The position numbers were made by a program, and so were the translations under genes. From a virus (taxonomy: Duplodnaviria; Caudoviricetes): 64,000 bases of DNA. The notes under the pieces are model-generated. The model was not told the DNA's origin. It ran no database searches and saw only the letters and a list, made by a program, of their open reading frames with translations. The stretch covers positions 69,091-133,090 of IMG/VR virus record IMGVR_UViG_2974779332_000001; one strand, given 5' to 3'. Every line of letters begins with the position of its first letter. The stretch's first letter is position 1. Below, one piece after another: positions 30,631-64,000 of this stretch.

Positions 30631-30700
30631 TGTTACGTAGCTTAATTGGCAAAGCTGTCTAAGGCCATAGACCATATGGGTTCGAATCCCATCGTAACAG
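30631..30700 (+). tRNA. tRNA-like gene with 6-nt anticodon loop, identity undetermined
   Basis: TGTTACG/CGTAACA; canonical D and T arms; GTCTA-AGGCCA-TAGAC. Confidence 0.6.
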
Positions 30701-30779
30701 CAATATCAGTTAGACTTCATAACCTTCATTGACCTATAATGGGAGAGCCTAATCCTATTAAGGCGGGAGGATTGAAGAT

Positions 30780-51593: not shown

Positions 51594-53192
51594 GCCACGT
51601 CCAGATGACCTCAACATTGTGCTTCCTGAGATTGATTGGGAAGGAATGGCAGAGGCTATTCGTGACATGGCAGAAGCATTCAGGGCAATTCGTCCACAGC
51701 TAGACGAAAGCTTCCAGCGAATCGGCCCGGAATCCAGTGGAGTACATCCGCTGCATCAAGCAAGACTAATCAATGAGGTAGAAGATATGGCAGTAGACAT
51801 CAGGCATGGTGAGTATCCTCGTCGTGATGGTGATGGAACCTATTGGTATGACCCATCAACATTGCACACTGATGAACCTGGCATTTGCTTCATGTGCAAG
51901 GCACCGACACACAGGCTAGACATTGATTATCATGGTCACTTCTGTGGCTCTGATGAGTGCAATGAGGCTGTGGTAAGGGACCTTGAGCGCCTGAATGGTG
52001 GCCCAGAAAATGGGTAAATACCGAATTCATCTCAGCCTGCTGTCAGGTAAAAAGATTTACTCTGACCCATTCCCATTCGAAAGTGATGAGTGGACGACAG
52101 AACAGGCAGAGGAGGTGATGGAGGGCATCATGGAAGCCGTTTGTTATGGTGCTCCACTAACTATCCTTGTTGATGGAATTAAGAGGAATTACCTCAATCA
52201 CGCCATTGAATCTCTTTGGTGGACTGACGGCAGTTGACAATCTCCTAATGTGTGCTTTAGCATGAAGACATTATGAGATATACAATTGTAAAGGAGCCTC
52301 TTAAAAGGGGCCGGAGCGTGGAGGGCTACAACTGGGCAGTTACTGATACTAAAGTAAACAAGGTTGTAGTCCGCTATGGTAATGAATTCAAAGCTGAATT
52401 CATCAAGGACACCTTCAACGAGGCGAATGTAAGCAGCAGATTCGAATTTGAAGTAGCTGGCACCGAGACCTTTGAAGACCTCGATGAGTCAGCATTCAAA
52501 GGGGAATGAATGCTAGAACAATTGGCTTGGCGATATCTGGCCCGGCGTATGAAAGTGCATCGCAAGGCTAAAAGACACCACCAAGCAGACCATATAAGAG
52601 CAGCACTAGCCACAAGGGAACAGAAGCAATGTAGTCTCTGTTGTATCCTTGAGAATACAGACTGGCTAGCATGGGCAACTAGGTTTGACCCAACGTCCGA
52701 CATGGACAAGGACAGTGAACTATATGCAGGTGTTATTGAAGATGAATCCCGGTTTGATGATGTGGTTCGGAGAACAGGTCTGGACTGACGAAGACTGGGA
52801 GGATTGGGATGACGATGAGGACTGGCCAGATGATGGCTGGTCCTTTTCGTTTTTGGTAGGGCGACAGAGAAGTCCGAATTTCTTAGTCTGATTTTGTTTT
52901 CATGATTTTTTAGTCATGAATTTTTAGTCAGACAGTGAGACGCGTAGCGTCTGCGTGCGCAGCACAAAACGCCCGGCAGGGAAGAGGCCCCTAACCCCTA
53001 TATACAATACCTTTTATCAACCATGTAACAAGACACACCTACTATATACACAAAGGCGTATGAAGCATAGAAGACAATGTAGCAGACATGCTGAGCTATG
53101 TCCTTGAGCATAGAGGTAGAGTATAAGGCTTGAATCTGATAGACAGAACAGCATGCCGCTTGTCAACTTTGATTGTGTTTGCACGTTAGCAC

Positions 53193-53257
53193 TTATCCAC
53201 AGGCTGAGGACTATCCTGTGGATAACTTTATGCAGCAGCACTATTTAGTTGTGCACA
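53193..53257. promoter_or_regulatory. DnaA-box cluster in a 1.2-kb non-coding gap
   Basis: TTATCCACA 53193, inverted TGTGGATAA 53217, TTGTGCACA 53249. Confidence 0.5.
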
Positions 53258-54158
53258 ATATAATAGTGAACTATGAGTATGTAATGGACAGGGACATTAC
53301 AAGTCTTAACAAGCATTTGACCACCACATTCCAAGCCCTATCAAGCATTCTGCCCCCGAATCCAAGGTAAATAAGGCTTTCAACCATCGATATTTTATGG
53401 CCAAAACAGCCCCAAAACGCTGAAAAATCACGATAAATCCCCCATTTCAAGGCAAAACGGACAGAAACGCCTGGTTTTCCCCACAATTTAACAGTCATTC
53501 GTAAAGAGACCCAAATCGGGGCATCATTCAGCCCCCAAATCTGACAGTCATCCCCCAAATCCATGGCAAAATACACTGTGATGCCTTAGAATCGAAGCCG
53601 GTAGCCTATGAATCGTAGATTGGGTGTCGATTCTCCCTATATACACGACACACTCCTTGATTGGATTGAGATGAGTGATAGATTTGGCCCGGTAATCGAA
53701 GGAACCCTTCGTAAATGAACCTATAAGTATCAACCCATTAGTAGAGTAGTTAGTTCTATGTATATAGGGGACAAGGACACCAACCACTACCGGCCCTCAA
53801 TCTCAGATTGTCTTGTCTCGCATGTATATAGCAGCACACAACACAAAAGCCACCCCGAAGGGTGGCTATTTTTACATCCAAATATCTCAGCAGAATTTTT
53901 CAAACTCTGGGGAAATTCAGCCCTTGCTTAAAGGGGAAATGTCTGGCAAAATTTGGAGTCCTTCGTAAAGGGGTTCCAATTCGGACATCCGCGACATATC
54001 GCTGTTGATATTGGGAGTGATTAGGTTACTTAGGCTAAGTAAGTGTCCGGGCCGGACAATTGAAAGGTCCCTGGGTTGCGGCCGACCTTCCGCTATTTAA
54101 CCCCTCGCCAGATTGACTGATAGGGGACCCAGGGACACACTTTGTACCTTACTCTTCT

Positions 54159-54187
54159 ATACTAGCAAGAGCCTGATAGCTTGTCAA
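54159..54187 (-). promoter_or_regulatory. sigma70-type promoter driving an ORF-less structured RNA
   Basis: Minus strand TTGACA-17 nt-TAGTAT. Confidence 0.7.
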
Positions 54188-54189
54188 CA

Positions 54190-54423
54190 TCACTTGGTGT
54201 AGTCAGGGAACAGACGTTCCAGCTCCCAGTCTTCCAAGAGATAGGCAGAGTGAGTGGGAGAGGGTACGGGGATACTGACAGCCCTTCCCCACATCTTTGC
54301 CGGTTCGTTCCACACCTTGCCGATGAAAGAGTTGGGAGTGATTCCTTCCACCTTGAAGTAGAAGCTACCCGAGAGAACCAGGTCGCCCATGGACAGTTCG
54401 ACACTTTCCTTTACCGGCTTCAT
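54190..54423 (-). CDS. Hypothetical cassette gene (probably leaderless)
   Basis: ATG directly after a TAGACT -10. Confidence 0.55.
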   Translation of the reverse strand: MKPVKESVELSMGDLVLSGSFYFKVEGITPNSFIGKVWNEPAKMWGRAVSIPVPSPTHSAYLLEDWELERLFPDYTK

Positions 54424-54535
54424 GAGTAGAGTCTATCAGTACAAGGAGGCCCTGTCTACCCACCGGGCCATCTGTCCGCCCCGGCCAAAATCCCCTAAAC
54501 CCTTTCGGGCCTAGGGGACTCGGACCTTTCCTGGA

Positions 54536-55548
54536 TTAGCTGGCCAGGGCCAGGACCGCCTTACGGATGCGGTTCTTCTCGACGTTCACGACCGGGTCGA
54601 AACCGCTCGCAGCGATGAACAGGTTGTCCACGTTGCCCCCGCGCGGCATACGGTACCAGTCGATACGCTCGGTCAGCGCGTTGAGAGCACCGGCCATCGT
54701 GCCACCCAGAGACTGAGTGGTCTTGGGACCCTCACCCGTGTCGGTGAAGATGCCCATCAGGATGTCCCGCTTGCTCTCCCACTTGACCATGGAACCCTTC
54801 ACGTCCTTCTCAGGACGCGGGTACAGGTCCGCAATCAGAGCGTCGAACTGGTCCTTCGTGCACTTGGCAGCGGCCAGAGCGGTCATCTCACGCTCGAACT
54901 CATCCGCGTACGCGAACGTGATGTTCAGAGCCTCGCGCGCCTGCGCCATGCGACCCTCAATGGTCTGCGTGTGGCGCATCTTGAACTGCTGCTTCACACC
55001 GTTACGGAGTGCGAAGTTCAGCGTGTTCTGACACACGACGCGAACCGGAGTGATGGACGCCTGGACGGCAACGGAGCCGTCGTGAGAGGTGTTGACCAAG
55101 AGATACATCTTGGTCACGTCGTTGTCACCGATGACGATGTCACGAGAGATGGACAGAGAACCGAACACCACGCGACCGTCACGGATGGAACCAGCCGTCT
55201 CCCACGTGCCACCACCCGCGAGGATGCCGTCACCGAAGCCGAACAGCTCCTCATTCTGGACGACCTTGTACCCTCGCCCACGGTGGCCAGAACGTCGTTC
55301 CGACCGTTGAACGGGTTGGTACGGACGACCATGTACGGCTCCGTGACGAAGTCGTAGTTGTCGGAAATCATGCCAAGGATGTCCTTGACGGATTCCAGTC
55401 GAACGTCCCAGCCGTTGAGGTGGGCCAGCGCCAGCATTTCGCTGGTCGTCAGCTCACCCTCGAACACGGTTCCGAGGTTGTGCCACGCGGGCTCGTTGCG
55501 AGAAGCGAACGCGACCTGACCCTTGGAACCAATCTCAAGACCGTGCAT
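54536..55548 (-). pseudogene. DUF932/DUF945 (TIGR03299-like) protein split by a 1-nt frameshift near 55272
   Basis: N part PAWHNLG..LATVGE; continues in another frame as YKVVQNEE..ETAGS..SHDGS..TPVRVVCQNTL..RHT. Confidence 0.75.
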
Positions 55549-55740
55549 TTTTGCCTCCATGGCAGATTGGTGTAAGGGCCGGTTTCCCTGCCCTTCGATG
55601 TCTCTAGTCTAGCAGTAGTCTGGGGGCGATGTCTACCCACCTGGTGTGTCTGCTATGTCCGTTTTGCCCTTTATGTTCCGGCCGCCCCGGACACACGAAA
55701 GCCCCTCCGAAGAGGGGCAGTGTGTCTAACCTACTAGAGA

Positions 55741-56178
55741 TTAGAAGGGCGGCTCGTCGCTGTAGTAGGAACCGGCCGCGTCCAGCTTCCGGCAGTAGTC
55801 GTCCACGATGTCCTTCGTGTCCTTGAGACCGAGACCGGTCATGGCGCGCAGCTCCTTGATGACCGGAATCTTCCGGTCGGAACCGTGCTTGACCACGATG
55901 GAAGCGACGTTGTCGTGGGCGCGCTGTACGGCCATCTCGTAGACCCGACGCAGCTTCGTCAGCTCCCACTCGTCGGGCGTGGGAACGGAGACCAGGGACT
56001 TGCCGACCTCGTGACCGGACTTGTAGCCCTCGTCGTAGCTGCTGTTGCTGACCTCGTTGACCTTGCTCTGGTGCAGGGCCAGGATGTCACGGGCCATGCT
56101 GACCGCGTCGTTCAGGGAGAGCGTGGAGTCGCTACGCTCGTTCAGGATGTCGATGATGTCGCCGAGGTGCATGACCAC
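55741..56178 (-). CDS. Protein with C-terminal ribosomal bL12 (L7/L12)-like domain
   Basis: KIPVIKELRAMTGLGLKDTKDIVD. Confidence 0.75.
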   Translation of the reverse strand: MVMHLGDIIDILNERSDSTLSLNDAVSMARDILALHQSKVNEVSNSSYDEGYKSGHEVGKSLVSVPTPDEWELTKLRRVYEMAVQRAHDNVASIVVKHGSDRKIPVIKELRAMTGLGLKDTKDIVDDYCRKLDAAGSYYSDEPPF

Positions 56179-56295
56179 TCCTTCTCTTAGGGGCTCCTTG
56201 CCCCTTTCGATGTCTCTATCTTAGCAGTACAAGGGCTCTGTGTCTACCGGTCGAAATTTGTCCGGGCCCGACAGGGCCCCGAAGGGCCCTGTGGA

Positions 56296-56736
56296 TTACC
56301 AGCGGACACCCACACCCTCACCGGAGATGGATTCCACGATGTACTTCGCGGTACGCAGGTCCAGGGTGGGAAAGTTCTGTCGCAGGTGCTTGATGCACCG
56401 AATCTTGGTGTTCAGGTCGTAGTGGCTGAACTCACCATTGGCCCAGATGCTCGCACGGGTGACCAACTGCGTGTGGTCCTGCTCAGCGGTGTAGTTCGCG
56501 TTCCGCTGTCCCGAACGTCGCCCCGCCTCGAAACCCTCGTCATAGGCGTGCGTGACGCGCGTGTCGGTCTCCTTACGGGCCAGGTCCCAGGCGTTGTTTT
56601 CCACCTCGATGACCCGCTGCGAGTGCAGGTCTTCCACGATGCGGGCGACCTCGAACGCCTTCTTGAGGCTCATCCGGATGCCGTTGTTGTGGAAGATGCG
56701 AACGAGACGGTCCGAGTCCAGGGTCCACAGCGACAT
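56296..56736 (-). CDS. Paralog with divergent bL12-like C-terminal domain
   Basis: KIRCIKHLRQNFPTLDLRTAKYIVE; shared N-terminus and YDEG motif. Confidence 0.6.
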   Translation of the reverse strand: MSLWTLDSDRLVRIFHNNGIRMSLKKAFEVARIVEDLHSQRVIEVENNAWDLARKETDTRVTHAYDEGFEAGRRSGQRNANYTAEQDHTQLVTRASIWANGEFSHYDLNTKIRCIKHLRQNFPTLDLRTAKYIVESISGEGVGVRW

Positions 56737-56870
56737 GATGTCCTCCTGTCTTAGGGAGCTTGTCTCCCTTTCGATGTACTAAGCTTAGCAGCCATCGGGA
56801 GCAGATACAAGCCCAAAGCCAAAGTGTCCGGGCCCGACACGGGCCCCTCATGTCAAGGGGCCCGGCAGGG

Positions 56871-57206
56871 TTAGGGGTTCGTGTTCCCTCTCTTGAGAAT
56901 GATTTGTTCGATGACGAATTTGGCATCCATCATTCGATTGAACTCAGCGTCAGAGCGGCTTTCCTTTCTGCCTGCCCATGCATTCATGATAGCCACCACG
57001 AATGCGAACAGAACATCTTGCACAGGCTCAGGGTAGGTAGTCAGGAGGTAGGCGAATGCATTCACGTCGAATGAACGCTTATCCATTTCCTCCATAAGCC
57101 TGTTTGCCAGTCGCTCATACGAGCCAGGGCGAGGGTTGACCAGTCGCGCACCCTCATACATGTCAGGCACAATCAGACTGGTCTGACGGAAGGGGTCACG
57201 TGCCAT
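56871..57206 (-). CDS. Hypothetical protein
   Basis: GAGG RBS; 111 aa. Confidence 0.55.
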   Translation of the reverse strand: MARDPFRQTSLIVPDMYEGARLVNPRPGSYERLANRLMEEMDKRSFDVNAFAYLLTTYPEPVQDVLFAFVVAIMNAWAGRKESRSDAEFNRMMDAKFVIEQIILKRGNTNP

Positions 57207-57366
57207 CGAAATCCTCTGTTGTACCGTAGCCGTCAGATACGCTCACAGACAGGCCCAGCACCTTTGCCAGAAACTCGGCCGTAGCCGTAGCAAAGGGCCA
57301 GGCCCCATCGTGGGCGTCATCATCAGGAGTCTCAATTTCCAGGATGATGTTCGCCATGTCCCTATC

Positions 57367-57882
57367 CTATCGCGTGTGAACCTCAACGTCCATCCCGAGC
57401 ACCACGGGGGAGCCGCAGTGGCAGTGAGACAGGGAGTAACCGCACTTGCAGACCTCCCGCTCACTCAGGACGATACGCTTGTTGCCGTACCAGGCGGTGT
57501 ACTCCGTACGGCTGGAACGGGTCGGGGCAGCGTGCGGACGCACGTCCTTACCGGTCACCTTGACGTGAACACCCGGCTCAGCGGGCTTGACGTCCGGGTT
57601 GTCCGCCTTGTAAGCGGCCAGCACCTCAGCGGAGAGGCGACCACGGGCGGACACGGTGAGACCCTTGGAAGCGGCCCATGCGCGAACGGTCTTGGCATCG
57701 AACTGTCCCGCCTTGGGAGCGGAAGCGACGACCTTGCGCGGAGTGGCGTTGGTGTCAGAGAACACCTTGCCCTCACCCTCAGCCTTGGCAATGGCCGCGT
57801 GCGCTTCGGCACTCATCCGGCCACGGGCGTCAGCCTTGGCGAGACCCAGCGAAGCGGCGTAGGCGCGACGGGTCATGTTCAT
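57367..57882 (-). CDS. lsr2: Lsr2-like DNA-binding protein with two RGR-type domains and a Cys-rich tail
   Basis: VRAWAASKGLTVSARGRLSAEVLAAY; N-terminal RAYAASLG..ARGRMSAEA; CKCGY..CHC. Confidence 0.8.
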   Translation of the reverse strand: MNMTRRAYAASLGLAKADARGRMSAEAHAAIAKAEGEGKVFSDTNATPRKVVASAPKAGQFDAKTVRAWAASKGLTVSARGRLSAEVLAAYKADNPDVKPAEPGVHVKVTGKDVRPHAAPTRSSRTEYTAWYGNKRIVLSEREVCKCGYSLSHCHCGSPVVLGMDVEVHTR

Positions 57883-58006
57883 TGTGGGTTCCTCTCCCTT
57901 GGTGATGTCTCTAGTCTAAGGCATGGAAGGGGGCCGCGTCAACACGTCTAAATGTCCGTTTTGCCCCAAATGCCGGTTGTCCGGGGCGGCCCGAAGGCCC
58001 CCGCTG

Positions 58007-58741
58007 TCAAGCCTTACGACGACGGGGAACCTTGGACGCGAAACGAATGTCAGCCTTACCAAAGATGCAAAGGCCGCATGTGAAGCACGCACCACCCTTT
58101 TCGGTGATAAGGGGAATGCGCTTGGCATTCTCAGGGCAAATAGCGCCAGGCTTGCCAGTCTCGGCAAGCATGAATTCCTTACCCTGGTCATGCGTTTCTG
58201 CCAGATAGGCAAGACGCACAAAGGGGTAAATCTCCTGAGTACCCAACGCAGCCTCTTTGTTCTCACTGTCTACACTCAGGTACACAGAGAGGTTAGGCAC
58301 ATCTTCCAGATAGGCCACGTACGCGAACGAACGTGTGTAAATCCAGAATTGCACGTCAGGGAATCGCTTGCACGTTTCCGCAAGGGCGTACGCGTAGTCA
58401 GAGGAAAAGATATCCCCATCGGCGTGCCAGCGGAATACCTTACTGATGTTGTGCTTTGCGCATTCCTGCGAGAATTCCGCAATCATGTCAGTGAGCAGAG
58501 AAATCATCTCACCGATAGTTGCATCCTTCAACAGGTTCCAATTGTGCAATGCCAACTCACGGAATGCCGGATACATCTTTTCCAGCTTACCGGCATAGCA
58601 GACGCCTTCACATACACTTGTTGCGCCGGGGCAAGAATAGACCTTGCCACTGGGCAAAGAAAATGCATTCCTGAGAAGGGACTGAGTGCCAGCCTTGTTG
58701 ACACGCGCAGTCGTCTTGCGGTCGTGAGAGCGCTTGAGCAT
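58007..58741 (-). CDS. Gp88-like (radical-SAM-related Fe-S) protein
   Basis: FSLP..CPGATSVCEGVCYA, FRWHADGDI, FWIYTR, NLSVYLSVD, C..C..C. Confidence 0.7.
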   Translation of the reverse strand: MLKRSHDRKTTARVNKAGTQSLLRNAFSLPSGKVYSCPGATSVCEGVCYAGKLEKMYPAFRELALHNWNLLKDATIGEMISLLTDMIAEFSQECAKHNISKVFRWHADGDIFSSDYAYALAETCKRFPDVQFWIYTRSFAYVAYLEDVPNLSVYLSVDSENKEAALGTQEIYPFVRLAYLAETHDQGKEFMLAETGKPGAICPENAKRIPLITEKGGACFTCGLCIFGKADIRFASKVPRRRKA

Positions 58742-58841
58742 GGCAGTCCTTTCGTTGACGTAAGACGAGTCTAGCAGACATGAGGGACGTAAACAAGCCC
58801 TCGATATGTCCGATTTGCCCGTTGTCCGTCCCCGACAGGGG

Positions 58842-59036
58842 CTAGAGGATAACGACGGAACGGTGAGAAGCATATGAGATTAGGTTCTCACGCTCAGTGG
58901 CTTCGTTGTAGAAAATCACCATTCGCTTGCCGCTGTAAGAGCCGATGTCACGAACGATGTGACCTTCCATGTAATATCCGCTATCGAAACGGACGCGCTC
59001 GTTGGGCTTGATTTCAGAAAAAGCCTTACGCTGCAT
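58842..59036 (-). CDS. Hypothetical small protein
   Basis: GGAGG RBS; coupled to the ParB-like gene. Confidence 0.5.
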   Translation of the reverse strand: MQRKAFSEIKPNERVRFDSGYYMEGHIVRDIGSYSGKRMVIFYNEATERENLISYASHRSVVIL

Positions 59037-59331
59037 TGCGTTCCTCCGAGCTGTAGGGCAGTTCCGTGTTACGAACAATGGTGCCAAGAGAGACAGCGTT
59101 GATTGTCTTGTGACCAAGAATCCAAGCCATCACAACACGATGCTGACCATTGTACACAGTGCCATTCTGAAAGTTGATAGGCATCTGAATTCCGTCACGC
59201 TCGCATGACTCAATGAATTCATCGCTCATCTCAAAGAAAAGCTGAGTGAACAGGTCCATCGTGCTCTGACCTTCCTCGCGGTCTGCGAAGTCGGCACGGG
59301 CAACGATTGCGTCTACACTCAGCTTCCTCAT
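59026..59331 (-). CDS. ParB/sulfiredoxin-like domain protein
   Basis: DGIQMPI..VYNGQHRV. Confidence 0.65.
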   Translation of the reverse strand: MRKLSVDAIVARADFADREEGQSTMDLFTQLFFEMSDEFIESCERDGIQMPINFQNGTVYNGQHRVVMAWILGHKTINAVSLGTIVRNTELPYSSEERNAA

Positions 59332-59561
59332 GTTGTAGAGTCTAGCAGACATGACAGGCATACACAAGCACCAATTTCTGTCCGGGCCGGACATGACTAA
59401 GGGCCCCCGAAGGGGCCCGGTGGTCAGAAGAGAATCAGAAGAATGAACAGGGCTACGATGAGCCACACCCAACCATCACGCATTCTCGCACACCTCCCTG
59501 TACCATGCGAAGTGACAGTACAGATAGAAGTGAAGCCATGTTGCGAAAGCCATTACTACTC

Positions 59562-59870
59562 CTACTCGAACAGGCAGATTTCTGCCTCATCGAATTGCAC
59601 GTACCATTCGGTCGTGTACTCGATGTCTTCAATGTTCAAAAGCCACGCGCACAGAATCCTGTGGTGACCCTCATAGACCTTGTTCTCATCGGGCTGATAC
59701 ATGATGGGAGTCTGAATCCCATCGGCCTGAATTGATTCAAGGAAGGTAGGGTTACCAATGAAGAGGTCATCGAACTTCTCTTCGAGCATCTGCCAGGTGG
59801 TGTGGCCCTTGGCCTCAGCATCATTGAAGATAGCCGACTCAATCAGCTTCGCAACAGATACCTTGGCCAT
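59562..59870 (-). CDS. ParB/sulfiredoxin-like domain protein (paralog)
   Basis: SIQADGIQTPI..VYEGHHRI. Confidence 0.7.
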   Translation of the reverse strand: MAKVSVAKLIESAIFNDAEAKGHTTWQMLEEKFDDLFIGNPTFLESIQADGIQTPIMYQPDENKVYEGHHRILCAWLLNIEDIEYTTEWYVQFDEAEICLFE

Positions 59871-60387
59871 GACCCCTCCTTGGCTTGATAAGACTACTCT
59901 ACACGACTACAGGGGCTATGTCTAGTGCCGGGCCAAACTGTCCGGGGCGGCCAAAAGGGGCCCCGAAGGGCCCCCAATGGGTTTGTCAGTCCTCGGAAGT
60001 GTCCTTGCTGCTGACCGCCTTGCCCTTCTTGAGAAGGGAAGCGTCACCGAGATTGACCTTACGCCGGGGACGCCCGACGTGAACGCTGGGGAAACGGGAC
60101 AGAACGTCACGGGCACGGGTCTCGTCGGCTTCCAGGATGTCGAACCGCTGGAACGGAGCCTTAGTGGCCACCTCACCGAACACGATGTCCACGCCCTGGA
60201 CAATCATGGCCACACGGAGGGAGAGAGCGTGACGAACGGGAACGATACCGGCAATCATGTGCACTCCTGTGCTAGAAGTAAGCTGGGGTATTCAGTTATC
60301 AGAGACTTTGGCAGGAAGGGAAAAACCTCGTCTTGCGAGGCCCTGTGGCCTGTCCCCTTGTGCTTAGCTAGAGTCTAGCAGGCTGAC

Positions 60388-60561
60388 CTACTCGCAGTCA
60401 ACCAGAATCTCCATGTCGTCCAGGTGGGCGTCAGGAGCCGGGTCGAACTCAAGGAACGTGTCCTCGAAGATGACCATCCAGGCGTAGCCCTCACGGTTCT
60501 TCGGGTTGCACTTGCCACGGTGCATGTCACCCATTGCCGCGCCACACTCGATGCACTTCAT
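60388..60561 (-). CDS. Small Zn-binding cassette protein
   Basis: MKCIECG..H..C; own promoter and RBS. Confidence 0.5.
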   Translation of the reverse strand: MKCIECGAAMGDMHRGKCNPKNREGYAWMVIFEDTFLEFDPAPDAHLDDMEILVDCE

Positions 60562-60691
60562 GAGGTTCTTTCCTCCCTCTCGATGTTCTAAGTCTACACT
60601 AGAGATGCGACAGACACAACACCCAATATTCGTTAGGCTTGCTAAGGTGTCCGGGCCCGACACGGGCCCCGAAGGGCCCGGCGGGAAGAGA

Positions 60692-60976
60692 CTACTTCTT
60701 GCCAGCGCGCTTGTTGCTGTGGTTCCCGTTCATCAGGTTGGTGAAGTCCAGAACGATGTTCTGACGGAAGTTCGTTGCGCCGTGGAACTTGCCGTCCTGG
60801 TCACGGACCACCACACGCACCTCGGTGTTGCCGAGAGCGGCACCCGGAACCTGCCAGGTCTCCAGTCGGATGGAGAAGGTGGACTTGGAACCCTTGACCT
60901 TGAAACCCTCGGTGAGGGTGACGGAGGAGACGACCTTGTGAGCGGCGTCGGTGACCTTGGCGAGGGAAACGGCCAT
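60692..60976 (-). CDS. Hypothetical cassette protein
   Basis: GAGGAG RBS; RDQDGKFHGATNF. Confidence 0.6.
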   Translation of the reverse strand: MAVSLAKVTDAAHKVVSSVTLTEGFKVKGSKSTFSIRLETWQVPGAALGNTEVRVVVRDQDGKFHGATNFRQNIVLDFTNLMNGNHSNKRAGKK

Positions 60977-61120
60977 TTGAAGCTCCTCAGAGTCTCGCTC
61001 GGGGGTTCCTTCCCCCTTGCTGATAGCTAAAGTCTACACGACTCCAGAGACAAGTACAAGCCCTGAATTATGTCCGTTTTGTCGTCCGGGCCGGACAAGG
61101 GGCCCGAAGGCCCCAAGCCG

Positions 61121-61402
61121 TTAGCCCTCCTGCTCAGCCTTGACCTTTTGCAGGTGCGAAAGGTCTTCCAGGGTGCGAGAGATGGCGTTCAGCGTCTCAT
61201 ACGCTTCCGCCTTGCTGAAACCGATGTATCCACGGTCACCCGTGCCGGGAGCAGCCGAACCACCGTCAACGAACAGACGGTGAGCAATGCCAGCCGAAGG
61301 GGTGCCCTCCTGGTAGTTCAGTTCGAGAGCGAAGCCCATGCCCTCCCAGTTGCGCTGGTAGCGCTGGATGGCGTTGAGAACGTCAGTCTTGGTAACCGTC
61401 AT
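61121..61402 (-). CDS. Hypothetical cassette protein
   Basis: GAGG RBS; own promoter and terminator. Confidence 0.6.
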   Translation of the reverse strand: MTVTKTDVLNAIQRYQRNWEGMGFALELNYQEGTPSAGIAHRLFVDGGSAAPGTGDRGYIGFSKAEAYETLNAISRTLEDLSHLQKVKAEQEG

Positions 61403-61505
61403 TTCGGGTTCCTCTCCCTCGGTGTAAGACGAGTCTATCAGAGTCCAAGAGCCATTACAACCCACCGGCCAAAATGTCCGGGCCGGACCCCGAAGGGCCC
61501 GACAC

Positions 61506-61829
61506 TCAGGTCAGCTTAGCCAGAAGCTTGCTGATTTCCTGCCGGAGTTCGCTCTGAGGGCGACGACCACGCTCCGCCTTGAGCGCACGCTCAAAGTAGG
61601 CACGAAGTTCGGTCTTGTTGTACGGACCTGCGCACTCATCGGTGTAGTTGATGTCCTCGAACGGCTGAGGGCAGGAGCAACCGGAGTCGCTTGCCACAAA
61701 GTACCGTCCTCGGGCCTCCTTCCACACCTGAGTGATGTTGAACTGCCACTGTTCCTGGTCCCAGTCGAAGGAACCCACGTACTCAAGGTTGGTGAGCAGG
61801 ACACGGCCGGGCTTAGAGAGGTTTGCCAT
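61506..61829 (-). CDS. Hypothetical protein with DSGCSCP motif
   Basis: AAGGAG RBS; ASDSGCSCPQPFE. Confidence 0.65.
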   Translation of the reverse strand: MANLSKPGRVLLTNLEYVGSFDWDQEQWQFNITQVWKEARGRYFVASDSGCSCPQPFEDINYTDECAGPYNKTELRAYFERALKAERGRRPQSELRQEISKLLAKLT

Positions 61830-62091
61830 GATGTCTCCTTAGACGTCTCTACGCTGTACCTTACCACACTTGGAACACTGGCGCATCTGAATCAGCGCCT
61901 TCCATGTGCCGAGTCTGGGGAAGATGGGGGAATCGAACGTTCCCAACATCGTCTTCCAGTCAGACCATTTGTGGATGTGCATCCGGCCCTCCTCGATTTC
62001 TTAGTCATAGTCTACACGACCAGATTTTTAGTCGCAAGCCCATTTTTCAAGATTTTTAGTCCGGGGCGGACAGGGCCGAAGCCCCTTCCGC

Positions 62092-62403
62092 TCACTCCCA
62101 GGGCCGGTAGTCAGACCAGCTCGCACCCTCGCGGTTTTCGATGAGGATTTCCACGGTGTCCCCCAGACGGTGATTCACGCTGTACAGGGAACGATTTGAA
62201 CCCTGGTAGCGCCTCTGAGTCTTGGCCCATTCGACCGTCCGCTCAGCCTGCCTATGGGAACGGTGAGGCCATGCCTCGATGTTCTCACCGTAGTTGAACC
62301 ACCATCCACCCTCTTCCGACCCTCCACAGGCCCGGTCGATAAGGTAGACATTCACCCAGTGCTTGTTACGCCGACGCTGACCCATACGCAGACCCTTGGC
62401 CAT
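62092..62403 (-). CDS. Hypothetical cassette protein
   Basis: GGAGG RBS; NVY..DR..GGSEEGGWW. Confidence 0.65.
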   Translation of the reverse strand: MAKGLRMGQRRRNKHWVNVYLIDRACGGSEEGGWWFNYGENIEAWPHRSHRQAERTVEWAKTQRRYQGSNRSLYSVNHRLGDTVEILIENREGASWSDYRPWE

Positions 62404-62819
62404 GATGTTCCTCCCTTGTCGGTGAGACCAGTCTAGCACCCCGTAATTGGAGATGCAACATGTCTGTAAGGATGGATTGTCATTGTCCGACCCGGACAAA
62501 AAATTCACCTACAAATTCACCCCTGTTTCGAAGGAATTCCCGTAGAAAAACCTTGAAAACAGGGGTGAATTTATTTTGGGCCTTATTTTCAGCCGATTTC
62601 GACCGTTTCATCCTTGCCTTTTCCGCAAAGGCAGTATTTCGAATGTGTGGCCGAAACAGGCCGAAGGCCCTTTTCGTTGTAGCGGAAAAGGAGATTTGAC
62701 AGAAGGGACGAGTTGAAAACCGGAGTTTTCGAGTGAATCCCGTCCCTTTCCAGCAAAAGGGACATGCTGTGGAATCGAACCTGAGAAACAGCCTTTTTCC
62801 GCATCATGTCCCCTTTGGG

Positions 62820-62966
62820 TCAGCCGAGTTCGGACATGTGCGCGTATGCGTCCTCGGTACCGAAGTCAACGGTACGGTCCGCATCCCGCACGGTGGAGAC
62901 AGGCAGGGTCATGGTCGTGAACACGCCAGCGTCCACAGCCTGCTCAAGAAGGTCACGAAGGTCCAT
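62820..62966 (-). CDS. Small hypothetical cassette protein
   Basis: AAGGAAG RBS; promoter just upstream. Confidence 0.45.
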   Translation of the reverse strand: MDLRDLLEQAVDAGVFTTMTLPVSTVRDADRTVDFGTEDAYAHMSELG

Positions 62967-63109
62967 GGTGTGTACTTCCTTCCGTCTTGGTGATAGCTCA
63001 AGTCTAGCGTATGGGTAGGGTGGATGCAAGCCCAACATCTCCGGGATTTTTCAGCCCTATCGTACACGCGCGGGGGAAATGTGGGGAATGTACGTAATGC
63101 CCCGTAAAA

Positions 63110-63206
63110 GGGGTCTATATAGGTATGCCCTATATGGGCGGTATGTACTATATGGGTAGGTATGTACCCATATGCCCCATATGTACCTATATGGGTGGGT
63201 ATGTCC
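63110..63206. repeat. Periodic (T/C)ATATG / GGTATG array, period about 9-10 bp
   Basis: Hexamers at about 63122, 63131, 63140, 63149, 63159, 63169, 63178, 63188, 63198. Confidence 0.7.
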
Positions 63207-63374
63207 TGAATGTCCGTTTTGTCCACCCCAGATTTGGGGGTGTCCGATTTGCCCCATATGTCGGTCCGCCCCGGACGTTACCAAGTCTTTACCTAAAAGA
63301 CTGCTGAATCTGGGGTTTAGGGCCCGGTGTCCGGGTAGGATGTAGGCATAGCCACTACAGACCAGGGAGACACG

Positions 63375-63812
63375 ATGAACGCCACCACCACTCACCAGTG
63401 CCGCTACAACAACGAGACTGCCGTTAACGCGCGTATCCGCCGTCAGGTGCTCGCTACGGTGCTGTACCTGGCACAGCTTACGGGCCACAGTGACGGGGCC
63501 ACGTGGGCAACGTGCGTGGGGTGTGGGGAGCGTAGCCACGTGGGCGGTACGCCTAGGGCCATGGACACGTTCAACCTGGGCCACGTGCTGGCAGACGCTG
63601 AAGGTGGCATGTACTGCCCTTGCAACCTGTTGCCTCTGTGCCGTCAGTGCAACGCTGACATGGGTAAGGAAACCCTTACTGATGTACTCATTCCGGTTTA
63701 TGACAACCGAGAGTGCTGGGACGGTAAGCTCATGGCCGACCCTGGCACCGTGGCCGCCAAGCCTGAGAGCAACCGGGGACGGGCCCGCTGGAACGCCCCT
63801 GCTAGCGTCTGA
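63375..63812 (+). CDS. HNH endonuclease-like protein, divergent from the cassette array
   Basis: CVGCG..NLGHVLADAEGG..NLLPLCRQCNADMG. Confidence 0.7.
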   Translation: MNATTTHQCRYNNETAVNARIRRQVLATVLYLAQLTGHSDGATWATCVGCGERSHVGGTPRAMDTFNLGHVLADAEGGMYCPCNLLPLCRQCNADMGKETLTDVLIPVYDNRECWDGKLMADPGTVAAKPESNRGRARWNAPASV

Positions 63813-64000
63813 GACGCTGTGAATGTGCCCCCTAGGGTAGTTGCCTAGGGGGCTATTTCATGCCCTCAGAACGGCACACAGGGCTTTTGAAAAGCGTTTT
63901 CATCTGGCCTGGGACCTTCTGCGGAACCTTCCCCGGACAGGTTTGTCAAGGGTTATGGGCGCACTATCCAAATTGTTATTTAACTATGCGAAGCATGTAT

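Follow-up and report, generated by a model that had tools for sequence, protein, structure and literature searches.

What is the role of a short palindrome that stands between one transcription unit and the next in the terminal repeat of a tailed phage? This question is raised by a 64,000-nucleotide stretch of DNA, the final 64 kb of the 133,090-bp viral genome IMGVR_UViG_2974779332_000001 (positions 69,091 to 133,090 of the record; hereafter the window). The first 10,714 bases of this genome are identical to the last 10,714, i.e. an exact direct terminal repeat (DTR) is present at both ends, and the minus strand of the DTR is a row of 14 self-contained transcription units (cassettes) bounded by copies of a 15-bp palindrome, TGTCCG-N3-CGGACA (M1). 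The region matches 83 phage-collection records, all of them from cluster-BE Streptomyces phages and each with two matching places, the top identity to BE relatives being approximately 80-82%; judged by these similarities, the source is a phage of this cluster. We propose that M1 may be a DNA docking or nicking site, at every cassette boundary, for an HNH-family protein encoded at the head of the array, a reading to which we assign a probability of about 0.45.

When the window was searched for TGTCCGNNNCGGACA and the counts were compared with those in shuffled sequences, three exact matches were found against 0.01 expected. With up to two mismatches allowed there were 16 matches, against 2.26 +/- 1.73 (100 shuffles, maximum 7). 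Fifteen of them lie within 54044-63277 (three exact, nine with one mismatch and three with two), and the sixteenth, at 52694 (two mismatches), is outside the DTR. The palindrome-punctuated array of about 14 cassettes described in an earlier, sequence-only reading of this DNA is thus confirmed, with 14 units and 15 M1 copies where about two would be expected by chance. A motif search of the full genome, which that reading had suggested, showed M1 to be concentrated in the repeat, with 15 copies in each DTR and five matches in the unique part of approximately 111.6 kb (one with a single mismatch, four with two). The conserved stretch is exactly 15 positions long in this genome and five relatives, the information content of the 22 flanking bases on each side being close to zero. 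Among repeats that carry this form of the palindrome (type A, see below), the promoter-proximal half, CGGACA, is nearly invariant and the distal half is variable. The one-mismatch copy of the unique part (C1:10772-10786 of the same genome) lies 58 bases past the left repeat, where the first minus-strand gene of the unique region has its 3' end, and exact M1 occurs at the equivalent place in phages Targaryen (L002:11302) and Jay2Jay (L005:11496).

Read along the minus strand, a junction between cassettes has the order stop codon, hairpin, M1, a short and often T- or A-rich spacer, -35 element, 17-18 nt, -10 element, leader and ribosome-binding site. The promoters claimed earlier (a -35, 17-18 nt and a TAGACT-like -10) could be located: there are 16 -10 elements, most of them preceded by TG(n), with TTGACA-like -35 elements at 17-18 nt by consensus match, and all 12 TAGACT hexamers of the DTR are on its sense (minus) strand. 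The TTGACA-like/TAGACT pattern is the Streptomyces sigma-HrdB consensus, and by this match the cassette promoters are predicted to be of the host sigma-HrdB type. The GC hairpin reported ahead of the palindrome is equally real: a GC-rich, often TTCG-looped hairpin ends between -3 and +8 nt from M1 at 13 of the 15 copies by eye, and at eight of them under a strict automatic rule. Seven cassette hairpins, upstream of promoters, have stems of 6-9 bp and TTCG loops. Of 256 M1 sites in 17 genomes, 174 are preceded by a hairpin whose end lies at most 12 nt upstream, and for 211 a -10-like hexamer is found at a distance of 20-80 nt on the downstream side; random positions give rates of 0.14-0.20. At both promoters without a hairpin before them (-10 at 60377 and 54164) M1 is missing too, and the final M1 (54044) has no promoter behind it; M1 is therefore a junction element and not strictly a promoter element.

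At most junctions the hairpin is followed by M1 instead of a T-run, and a scan of the array for canonical intrinsic terminators (hairpin plus U-tract) picked just 55718-55701 and the M1 copy at 56840-56824. Is M1, then, recognized in DNA or in RNA? The pairing of its arms was analysed in six type-A repeats, which contain 48 distinct 15-mers and 288 arm pairs. Of these pairs 237 are of Watson-Crick type and 51 are not (36 plain mismatches, nine G.U and six A.C), and a single variant among the 48 carries a compensated double change. The commonest type-A variant, TGTCGGGCCCGGACA, folds at -2.6 kcal/mol, 8 of the 15 M1 15-mers fold at -3.4 kcal/mol or weaker, and 3 of the 15 copies pair with themselves in their RNA context. 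Since the deviating type-A copies are uncompensated, selection appears to act on the sequence of M1 and not on a stem, which would imply a protein that reads duplex DNA. We consider it quite unlikely that M1 acts in RNA, be it as a second hairpin that completes or backs the terminator or as a 3' end of early transcripts that is bound or cut by a protein. A stem as such would not require one sequence to be shared by all copies of a genome, as is the case here. The element that follows the palindrome in Tomas and Karimac is AAAAGATCTT and not a U-tract; in Tomas the hairpin abuts M1, after which comes AAAAGATC.

Several features nevertheless speak for a role in RNA, and they count against a duplex-DNA reader. 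M1 starts 0-8 nt past the first hairpin at most junctions and is followed at some of them by a T-run, so that at a few junctions the two together look terminator-like (e.g. 56840-56824, the copy picked by the scan). Between lineages both arms change jointly and the dyad is kept, and the 15-mers of four other palindrome types (B', C, D and E, below) fold at -6.4 to -8.7 kcal/mol. Moreover, the asymmetric central triplet has one orientation relative to transcription in 10 of 10 copies in Riptide and 10 of 12 in Coruscant, and also in Karimac and Tomas, the plus-oriented copies of Karimac flanking the plus-strand HNH gene; a strand- or RNA-level role would therefore fit this fixed orientation as well.

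Comparison of 28 related repeats revealed that the same junction slot holds one of about eight palindrome variants. Type A (TGTCCG-N3-CGGACA) is found in this phage, MulchMansion, Targaryen, NootNoot, Mildred21, Jay2Jay and two metagenomic contigs, type A2, a looser mix (GTCSG-N3-CSGAC), in EGole, Samisti12 and Peebs, and type F (GTCGG-N3-CCGAC) in one metagenomic contig. Riptide, Anedea and Bmoc have type B', GGCCGCCCCGGCC; Karimac, Enygma, StarPlatinum, BoomerJR, Wofford, LukeCage and MindFlayer have type B, CCGCCCCGG, often followed by AAAAGATCTT. Type D (GACCG-N3-CGGTC) is that of Tomas, type C (GGCGCCCGGCGCC) that of Coruscant, where a second palindrome follows, and of one metagenomic contig, and type E (TGCGCCCGGCGCA, 11 copies) that of a further metagenomic contig. 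In every lineage searched genome-wide the local type is confined to the DTR: GGCCGCCCCGGCC occurs 10 times per repeat in Riptide, CCGCCCCGG 19 times in Karimac, GACCG-N3-CGGTC 16 times per repeat in Tomas and GGCGCCCGGCGCC 12 times per repeat in Coruscant, and none of them is present in the respective unique part. At orthologous junctions the flanks remain typical of the lineage even where the palindrome differs.

Phages isolated on the same strain can carry different types, e.g. NootNoot and Karimac on S. griseus ATCC 10137, and Jay2Jay and BoomerJR on S. lividans JI 1326, and a host factor is therefore unlikely as the reader of M1. The concerted change of 10-19 sites indicates a reader encoded by the phage, so that on sequence grounds a phage factor seems more likely than a host factor. 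The satellites MulchRoom (L066) and MiniFlayer (L067), which have their own short terminal repeats and BE helpers, contain neither M1 nor the related M2 box described below; M1 is thus not a general repeat-processing signal that satellites borrow. The genome termini (first 70 bases, 17 genomes) do not track M1 type. The element AAAAGATCTT, itself palindromic, stands behind the palindrome in Karimac, Enygma and Tomas, and Karimac has six copies of it in the repeat and one elsewhere. The second palindrome of Coruscant, TAGATG-N7-CATCTA, lies behind M1, and the -10 there is TAAGCT. The 13-mer of Riptide happens to fit the SfiI pattern, GGCC-N5-GGCC; this interpretation was dropped, as the other palindrome types do not fit it.

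Which phage protein could read such a site? The sole plus-strand gene of the DTR (63375..63812, 145 aa) is divergent from the array and is predicted to encode an HNH-family nuclease: its product belongs to phrog_7426 (named HNH endonuclease; E 2e-93), and the gene occurs at two places in each of the 87 BE records. Residues C47, C50, H70, N84, C89, C92 and N93 are invariant among 30 aligned relatives, and the motif, His...Asn...Asn/His flanked by two CxxC zinc-ligand pairs, has the pattern CxxC...H...N...CxxC-N. Some relatives carry a precomputed PF14279 or PF01844. For a structure model with a predicted local distance difference test (pLDDT) score of 83.7, the list of structural matches is dominated by HNH domains (Cas9 HNH, McrA, GVE2 HNH, PacI, the Gme nicking HNH, T4 endonuclease VII and T5 SciA). 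NCBIfam returned nothing for this protein, and a sequence search against solved structures gave nothing meaningful. Neither inspection by eye nor a consensus scan covering sigma-70-type sites only revealed a consensus host-type promoter before the gene.

The evidence that links this gene to M1 comes from a comparison of all repeat-encoded proteins across phages, with trees built for the HNH protein, GP88, Lsr2, DUF932 and two other DTR proteins. The HNH tree sorts exactly by M1 type: four motif classes in the 28 repeats require three changes on this tree, which is the minimum, against 4-7 on the five others. The clearest case is provided by Riptide, Anedea and Bmoc. By 16 other proteins with relatives in both groups these phages are members of BE1, as is the phage studied here; their HNH proteins form a clade with those of BE2 (support of 96-98 in the Shimodaira-Hasegawa-like approximate likelihood ratio test, SH-aLRT), and their palindrome shares the BE2 CCGCCCCGG core. 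Of the 17 Riptide proteins with relatives in both groups, only HNH is closer to BE2 (69-70%, against 58-61% to type-A BE1), and a clade of BE2 plus the Riptide group is rejected in the approximately unbiased (AU) test by Lsr2 (p-AU 0.0002) and DUF932 (p-AU 0.0008). Two metagenomic contigs, of types E and C, join Coruscant in the HNH tree and not in the GP88 tree, with the caveat of long branches.

This assignment has to be weighed against a number of observations that argue the other way. The Pfam scores of the HNH protein are below cut-off (HNH_5, 23.7 bits with a cut-off of 27.5; HNH, 17.6 with 21.4), and its fold matches are weak (best Foldseek E 0.22, VIA-align Z <=4.9). The HNH alignment, with its 145 columns, does not reject a Riptide group placed with the other BE1 phages (p-AU 0.19), and the groups submitted to the AU test were named after the HNH tree had been seen. 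One clear backbone-discordant lineage, that of Riptide, was compared genome-wide, and two more are suggested by the GP88 tree alone. An M1 copy within the gene encodes the N-terminal 'APV' extension that HNH proteins of types B and B' have in common; the extension is for this reason not an independent character. Some restraint must, in addition, act on a nuclease whose own repeat contains 15 of its sites. Finally, 27 of 317 Riptide open reading frames (ORFs) have Karimac, and not this phage, as the closer relative, with a margin of at least 5 points, and since these are discordant as well, another small protein could be the real reader. Those with an annotation encode, besides HNH, a tail protein, a vWA-TerF-like protein and a few small proteins; HNH is the sole nucleic-acid enzyme among these annotated genes.

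Three other candidate readers were considered and set aside. Riptide gp158, the most discordant protein, is vWA-TerF-like and no nucleic-acid binder. For the first of two ParB-like proteins, Riptide gp12 is 94% identical to that of EGole and Samisti12, whose sites are type-A-like. The Lsr2 tree, as given above, rejects the palindrome grouping.

The HNH gene of type-B phages (Karimac, MindFlayer), itself on the plus strand, is bracketed by three CCGCCCCGG cores in plus orientation (L007:11830, 11954 and 12417; L068:11438, 11562 and 12025). They are located approximately 110 nt upstream, within codons 5-8 (encoding 'APV') and just past the stop codon, and could reflect autoregulation.

The discordant ORFs also leave room for M1 as the operator of a different regulator, phage-encoded and not HNH or, less likely, host-encoded, which would switch the whole early array, the correlation with HNH being due to linkage or chance. 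The distance between M1 and the next -35 bears on this point. It is 11-14 nt in 6 of 13 promoters, which fits a plain transcription factor equally well and must be added to the arguments against the nuclease. In the other seven it is 20-43 nt, and four of these long gaps are filled by a non-palindromic box, M2 (CAAAWCGGACAY), which shares the CGGACA half-site with M1 and whose core ends 10, 10, 11 and 20 nt before the -35. Nine of 12 promoters have a CGGACA half-site at 10-14 nt upstream of the -35, a suitable place for an activator or a blocker of an UP element. The six M2 copies are all in the DTR and all in sense orientation, with none in the unique part of approximately 111.7 kb, and M2 is conserved across all BE lineages, whatever their palindrome. 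The Riptide annotation, moreover, includes MerR-like, small helix-turn-helix (HTH) and WhiB proteins. We still rate an operator for such a regulator as unlikely: the distance from M1 to the -35 varies from 11 to 43 nt, M1 goes with the junction and not with the promoter, as the hairpin-less promoters and the terminal M1 copy illustrate, and M1 types differ within one host strain. Of the earlier proposal of an operator for one phage or host regulator, the sequence-recognized site stands and a phage factor is the likelier reader; the ParB-like and Lsr2 candidates named for it do not track M1.

M2 copies are located, all on the minus strand, at 63240..63251 and 63210..63221 (in the head region described below), 61070..61081 (its core ending 11 nt before the -35 of cassette 5), 58806..58817 and 57952..57963 (10 nt before the -35 of the GP88 and Lsr2 cassettes, respectively) and 55655..55666 (20 nt before that of the DUF932 cassette). 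In Riptide, Karimac and Coruscant, M2 precedes some of the same cassettes (the Lsr2 cassette in Riptide and Karimac) and is present in the head region of all three.

In the reading that we prefer, M1 would be read as double-stranded DNA by a phage protein, the best candidate being the HNH-family nuclease at the head of the array. This protein would probably work as a dimer or as a strand-specific nickase, docking at all cassette boundaries and probably nicking there in a controlled fashion; nicking or cutting, and not mere binding, is probable since the catalytic residues are conserved. Two consequences may be guessed: a roadblock that seals the units, giving shut-off or insulation of early genes once HNH appears, or strand-specific nicks in the repeat, of the kind known from T5. 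The gain and loss of cassettes would be a by-product of recombination between the repeated terminator-M1-promoter modules. A more specific version, in which M1 copies are strand-specific nick sites set by the DTR's own HNH protein at each boundary between its cassettes and at no other place in the genome, so that this would be a T5-like nicked actinophage genome with a site and a nickase that co-evolve lineage by lineage, seems to us improbable. If it were true, strand-displacement copying of the 10.7-kb repeat could start from the nicks while concatemers are processed; as swivels and breakpoints, the nicks could also insulate the early units and promote the shuffling of cassettes.

The palindrome had also been proposed as a recombination seam that allows cassettes to be gained, lost or duplicated. 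Breakpoints, defined as the ends of BLAST segments between this repeat and those of ten BE1 relatives, form 37 clusters, of which 26 are non-coding (28% of the sequence is non-coding). Eight clusters lie within 20 nt of an M1 centre, against 2.4 under a uniform null (P = 0.0016) and 6.0 under an intergenic-only null (P = 0.23). Cassette gain and loss are real, and breakpoints exactly at M1 are in no excess over the intergenic background. MulchMansion has an additional cassette flanked by a 33-nt repeat (M1 plus hairpin), and in NootNoot an extra cassette stands between 110-nt repeats that comprise the whole module. On this evidence the homology used in shuffling appears to be the whole terminator-palindrome-promoter module of 33-110 nt, and not the 15-mer.

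Taken to its limit, this picture would leave M1 with no reader at all, as part of a terminator-promoter module homogenized by gene conversion and serving only as homology for shuffling. The excess of non-coding breakpoints, the two flanking repeats and the ten identical 13-mers of Riptide, asymmetric centre included, would all be expected in that case. We nonetheless regard it as very unlikely. Conservation falls to zero just outside the 15-mer, with lineage-typical flanks at orthologous junctions, so that gene conversion would need tracts of about 15 bp; the dyad symmetry is perfect in all lineages; M1 has no excess of breakpoints over other intergenic positions; and some indels occur inside operons, away from M1 (e.g. 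the 47-aa gene at 61839-61982).

How does the array compare with known systems? In T4-type phages, promoter-early stem-loop (PeSL) cassettes have been described as modules that act as shuffling seams (PMC2839356; PMC4122927). PeSLs are small composite modules with a strong host-type early promoter and a stem-loop terminator or attenuator, and they bound the indels and swaps between relatives. The array shows the same combination of sigma-70-type promoters (by consensus), adjoining stem-loops and module-bounded indels. It differs in that PeSLs are not known to have a separate conserved palindrome between stem-loop and promoter or nuclease-tied lineage variants, and in that they are scattered over the hyperplastic regions of a circularly permuted genome, whereas the BE array fills a fixed terminal repeat. 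PeSL mini-circles, excised by recombination between modules, have been demonstrated experimentally.

A second likeness is to the pre-early (first-step-transfer) region of T5. Both phages are siphoviruses with genomes of 120-135 kb, and in both a repeat of some 10 kb (10.2 kb in T5) makes up approximately 8% of the genome (PMC5764925; 10.64898/2026.04.02.716235). Such repeats are filled with 17-21 small genes, mostly dispensable or unknown, among them an HNH endonuclease gene, which in T5 is hegG, encoding HegG. The T5 HNH endonuclease SciA has been solved on GCGC DNA (PDB 9qgx). There is no sequence relationship between the T5 and BE repeats. The T5 genome carries nicks, and these, like its two-step injection and the A1/A2 functions, are experimental findings, whereas for the BE phage they provide an analogy only. 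We know of no report of a palindrome between all pre-early units of T5, whose DNA was not compared here.

The 13-kb terminal redundancy of the Bacillus phage SPO1, with its host-takeover layout, was reportedly described by Stewart and co-workers in 1998. It is likewise a terminal repeat of small early genes in many short operons, each with a strong host-type promoter and a terminator, in a phage of another family with another host and gene set, and to our knowledge without a junction palindrome. The early regions of T5 and SPO1 lie in long DTRs, as does the array, with its exact 10,714-bp repeat at both ends. Because it is a 10.7-kb terminal repeat, approximately 8% of the genome as in T5, and is packed with host-type promoters, the region looks like an early or host-takeover module, by analogy with T5 and SPO1 (PMC5764925). 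It is in this form that the host-takeover role assigned to the region by the sequence-only reading may be upheld.

The stoperators of cluster-A mycobacteriophages, many copies of a short site in intergenic gaps with a lineage-varying consensus and one phage protein as reader, are also comparable, being multi-copy sites in short gaps whose consensus shifts by lineage together with the phage reader. Stoperators are, however, asymmetric 13-mers distributed throughout the genomes of temperate phages, with an immunity repressor as the binding protein, whereas M1 is a palindrome that stays within the repeat; the Riptide annotation lists no repressor. BE phages are described as virulent and reported to be without integrases (PMC10690885). 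An integron attC array was rejected, as M1 is a 15-bp perfect palindrome and attC sites are of approximately 60-140 bp with paired core sites and a tyrosine integrase (IntI); no integrase is annotated in the whole Riptide record, and the genome studied here was not scanned for one.

No description of M1 was found in literature searches, in the main text of PMC5764925 or in term searches of PMC7650747, PMC10690885 and PMC8612146. The new part is the co-varying palindrome/nuclease pair; PeSL-like cassettes in a T5- or SPO1-like terminal repeat are of a known kind. BE phages have the longest terminal repeats known among actinophages, with almost no repeat gene of known function, and the cassette array provides a parts list of strong Streptomyces promoters and terminators together with a map of likely host-takeover genes. 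It also carries the PeSL idea, in which genes are shuffled at repeated regulatory modules, beyond the T4-type phages to a group unrelated to them. A lineage-specific palindrome that tracks one nuclease-family gene constitutes a testable protein-site pair, with at least five natural site types for swaps. If the protein nicks, it would provide a second tractable case for the question raised by T5, namely the purpose of site-specific nicks in phage genomes; if it only binds, it would represent a new way of bounding or shutting off early units.

The right DTR copy (53287..64000) was delimited by genome-end identity, the GC profile and the occurrence of two copies in each relative's record. Its GC content is 52-60%, against approximately 48% across the remainder of the window, and elevated repeat GC has already been published for relatives (PMC8612146).

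Between the HNH gene and the first cassette promoter, a head control region (63040..63340, minus strand) was delimited by sequence reading. It contains a degenerate M1, two M2 boxes, extra GGACA repeats and one TTGTCCACC word, which resembles the Streptomyces DnaA box. Positions 63100-63260 hold about six iteron-like CCATATAG/TATGTAC repeats and four direct TGTCC repeats. The layout is kept in Riptide, Karimac and Coruscant, and the region could be an origin or a master control region. A DnaA-box interpretation of the palindromes themselves was dropped, since they have no DnaA-box 3' half.

The array opens with a two-mismatch M1 (63263..63277), 98 nt upstream of the HNH start, and all its cassettes are on the minus strand. 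Cassette 1 (62499..63029; -35 at 63029-63024, -10 TAGACT at 63006-63001) encodes proteins of 48 aa (62966-62820) and 72 aa (62807-62589) and has a long hairpin at approximately 62569-62516; the stretch behind its first gene, which may be mistaken for an RNA, is the 72-aa gene, which has a Riptide homologue. After an exact M1 (62484..62498) comes cassette 2 (62073..62458; -10 at 62435), with a 103-aa gene (62403-62092) and a TTCG-loop hairpin abutting the next M1 (62058..62072, one mismatch). Cassette 3 (61490..62037; -10 at 62014) codes for a 47-aa Cys-pair protein (61982-61839) and a DUF7574 protein (61829-61506), has a TTCG-loop hairpin, and is separated by a one-mismatch M1 (61475..61489) from cassette 4 (61098..61460; -10 at 61437; 93 aa, 61402-61121; hairpin 61114-61099). 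The following M1 (61083..61097) also has one mismatch and leads to cassette 5 (60663..61059; -10 at 61036; 94 aa, 60976-60692; hairpin 60680-60663).

Cassette 6 (59954..60619; -10 at 60596) lies between one-mismatch copies at 60648..60662 and 59939..59953, the latter with the distal half TGGCCG; it encodes a 57-aa Cys-rich protein (60561-60388) and, behind an internal promoter (-10 at 60377), one of 90 aa (60258-59986), with a hairpin at 59974-59957. The first ParB-like gene (59870-59562) is found with two tiny ORFs in cassette 7 (59394..59924; -10 TAGAGT at 59901; hairpin 59418-59401), and the second (59331-59026) with a 64-aa gene (59036-58842) in cassette 8 (58838..59367; -10 at 59344), the two cassettes being divided by an exact M1 (59379..59393). 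A one-mismatch copy (58823..58837) introduces cassette 9 (57993..58796; -10 at 58773), which encodes a GP88-family protein (58741-58007) and is bounded on its far side by a two-mismatch copy (57978..57992). Cassette 10 (56840..57942; -35 TTGACG, -10 at 57918) comprises the Lsr2-like gene (57882-57367) and genes of 53 aa (57357-57196) and 111 aa (57206-56871), with a hairpin at 56864-56840.

Beyond a one-mismatch M1 (56825..56839), cassette 11 (56274..56810; -10 TAAGCT at 56787) encodes bL12-like protein a (56736-56296), and its hairpin (56292-56271) overlaps the next M1 (56259..56273, one mismatch) by 3 nt. In cassette 12 (55694..56246; -10 TAAGAT at 56223) the gene for bL12-like protein b (56172-55741), with a Ribosomal_L12 C-terminal domain, is followed by a hairpin (55718-55701) and a two-mismatch M1 (55679..55693). 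Cassette 13 (54488..55635; -10 at 55611) contains a DUF932 gene (55560-54536) with a broken frame and a GAAA-loop hairpin (approximately 54521-54488), and a one-mismatch M1 (54473..54487) separates it from cassette 14 (54059..54458; -10 at 54435), in which a 77-aa gene (54423-54190) precedes a small-RNA promoter and a small RNA. An exact M1 (54044..54058) behind this RNA, with no promoter after it, ends the array.

The terminal small RNA (about 100 nt, approximately 54157-54062, minus strand) has its own consensus promoter, TTGACA-17-TAGTAT (54187-54159). It is kept in BE1, BE2 and Tomas phages, and its consensus fold from 13 sequences has 18 pairs, eight of them with compensatory changes. No Rfam family was found for it; the sole Rfam match over 53000-64000 was far under threshold (E 0.14).

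With regard to cargo, profile matches support the GP88, Lsr2 DNA-binding, ribosomal L7/L12 C-terminal and DUF932 assignments made earlier and add DUF7574. The adjacent paralogue pairs were also verified, the members of one both belonging to phrog_5819 and those of the other to phrog_4635. The ParB-like label fared less well: neither gene has a Pfam hit, and the name comes only from the annotation of relatives. NCBIfam gave nothing for the DUF7574 or ParB-like proteins. Compared with the intact 340-aa gene of Riptide, the DUF932 gene has a one-base gap near 55272 and is read as two overlapping ORFs (55560-55114 and 55171-54536). This could be a real frameshift or an assembly error, the two repeat copies being identical by construction. 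In the Lsr2-like protein (57367-57882, minus strand) two RGR-containing DNA-binding motifs and a C-terminal Cys/His cluster (CKCG...HCHCG) can be seen by eye, and Pfam scored one copy.

The shared ACATC(GAAAGGG) leader exists, and 'often', as it had been put, is too strong: ACATCGA follows 4 of the 16 promoters, i.e. it is found sometimes. Two leaders (56189-56205 and 61001-61016, minus strand) form a short hairpin with AAGGA in the loop (ggggc-AAGGA-gcccc and ggggg-AAGGAA-ccccc), just ahead of a second Shine-Dalgarno sequence, and may act as a 5' stabilizer or a translation element.

The window further contains 39 tRNA genes and one tmRNA gene, a set already published for cluster BE (PMC5764925). 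ARAGORN also identified a tRNA-like gene with a two-base anticodon (gc) at 30631-30701 on the plus strand, and the same oddity is entered in the Karimac record as 'tRNA-OTHER'.

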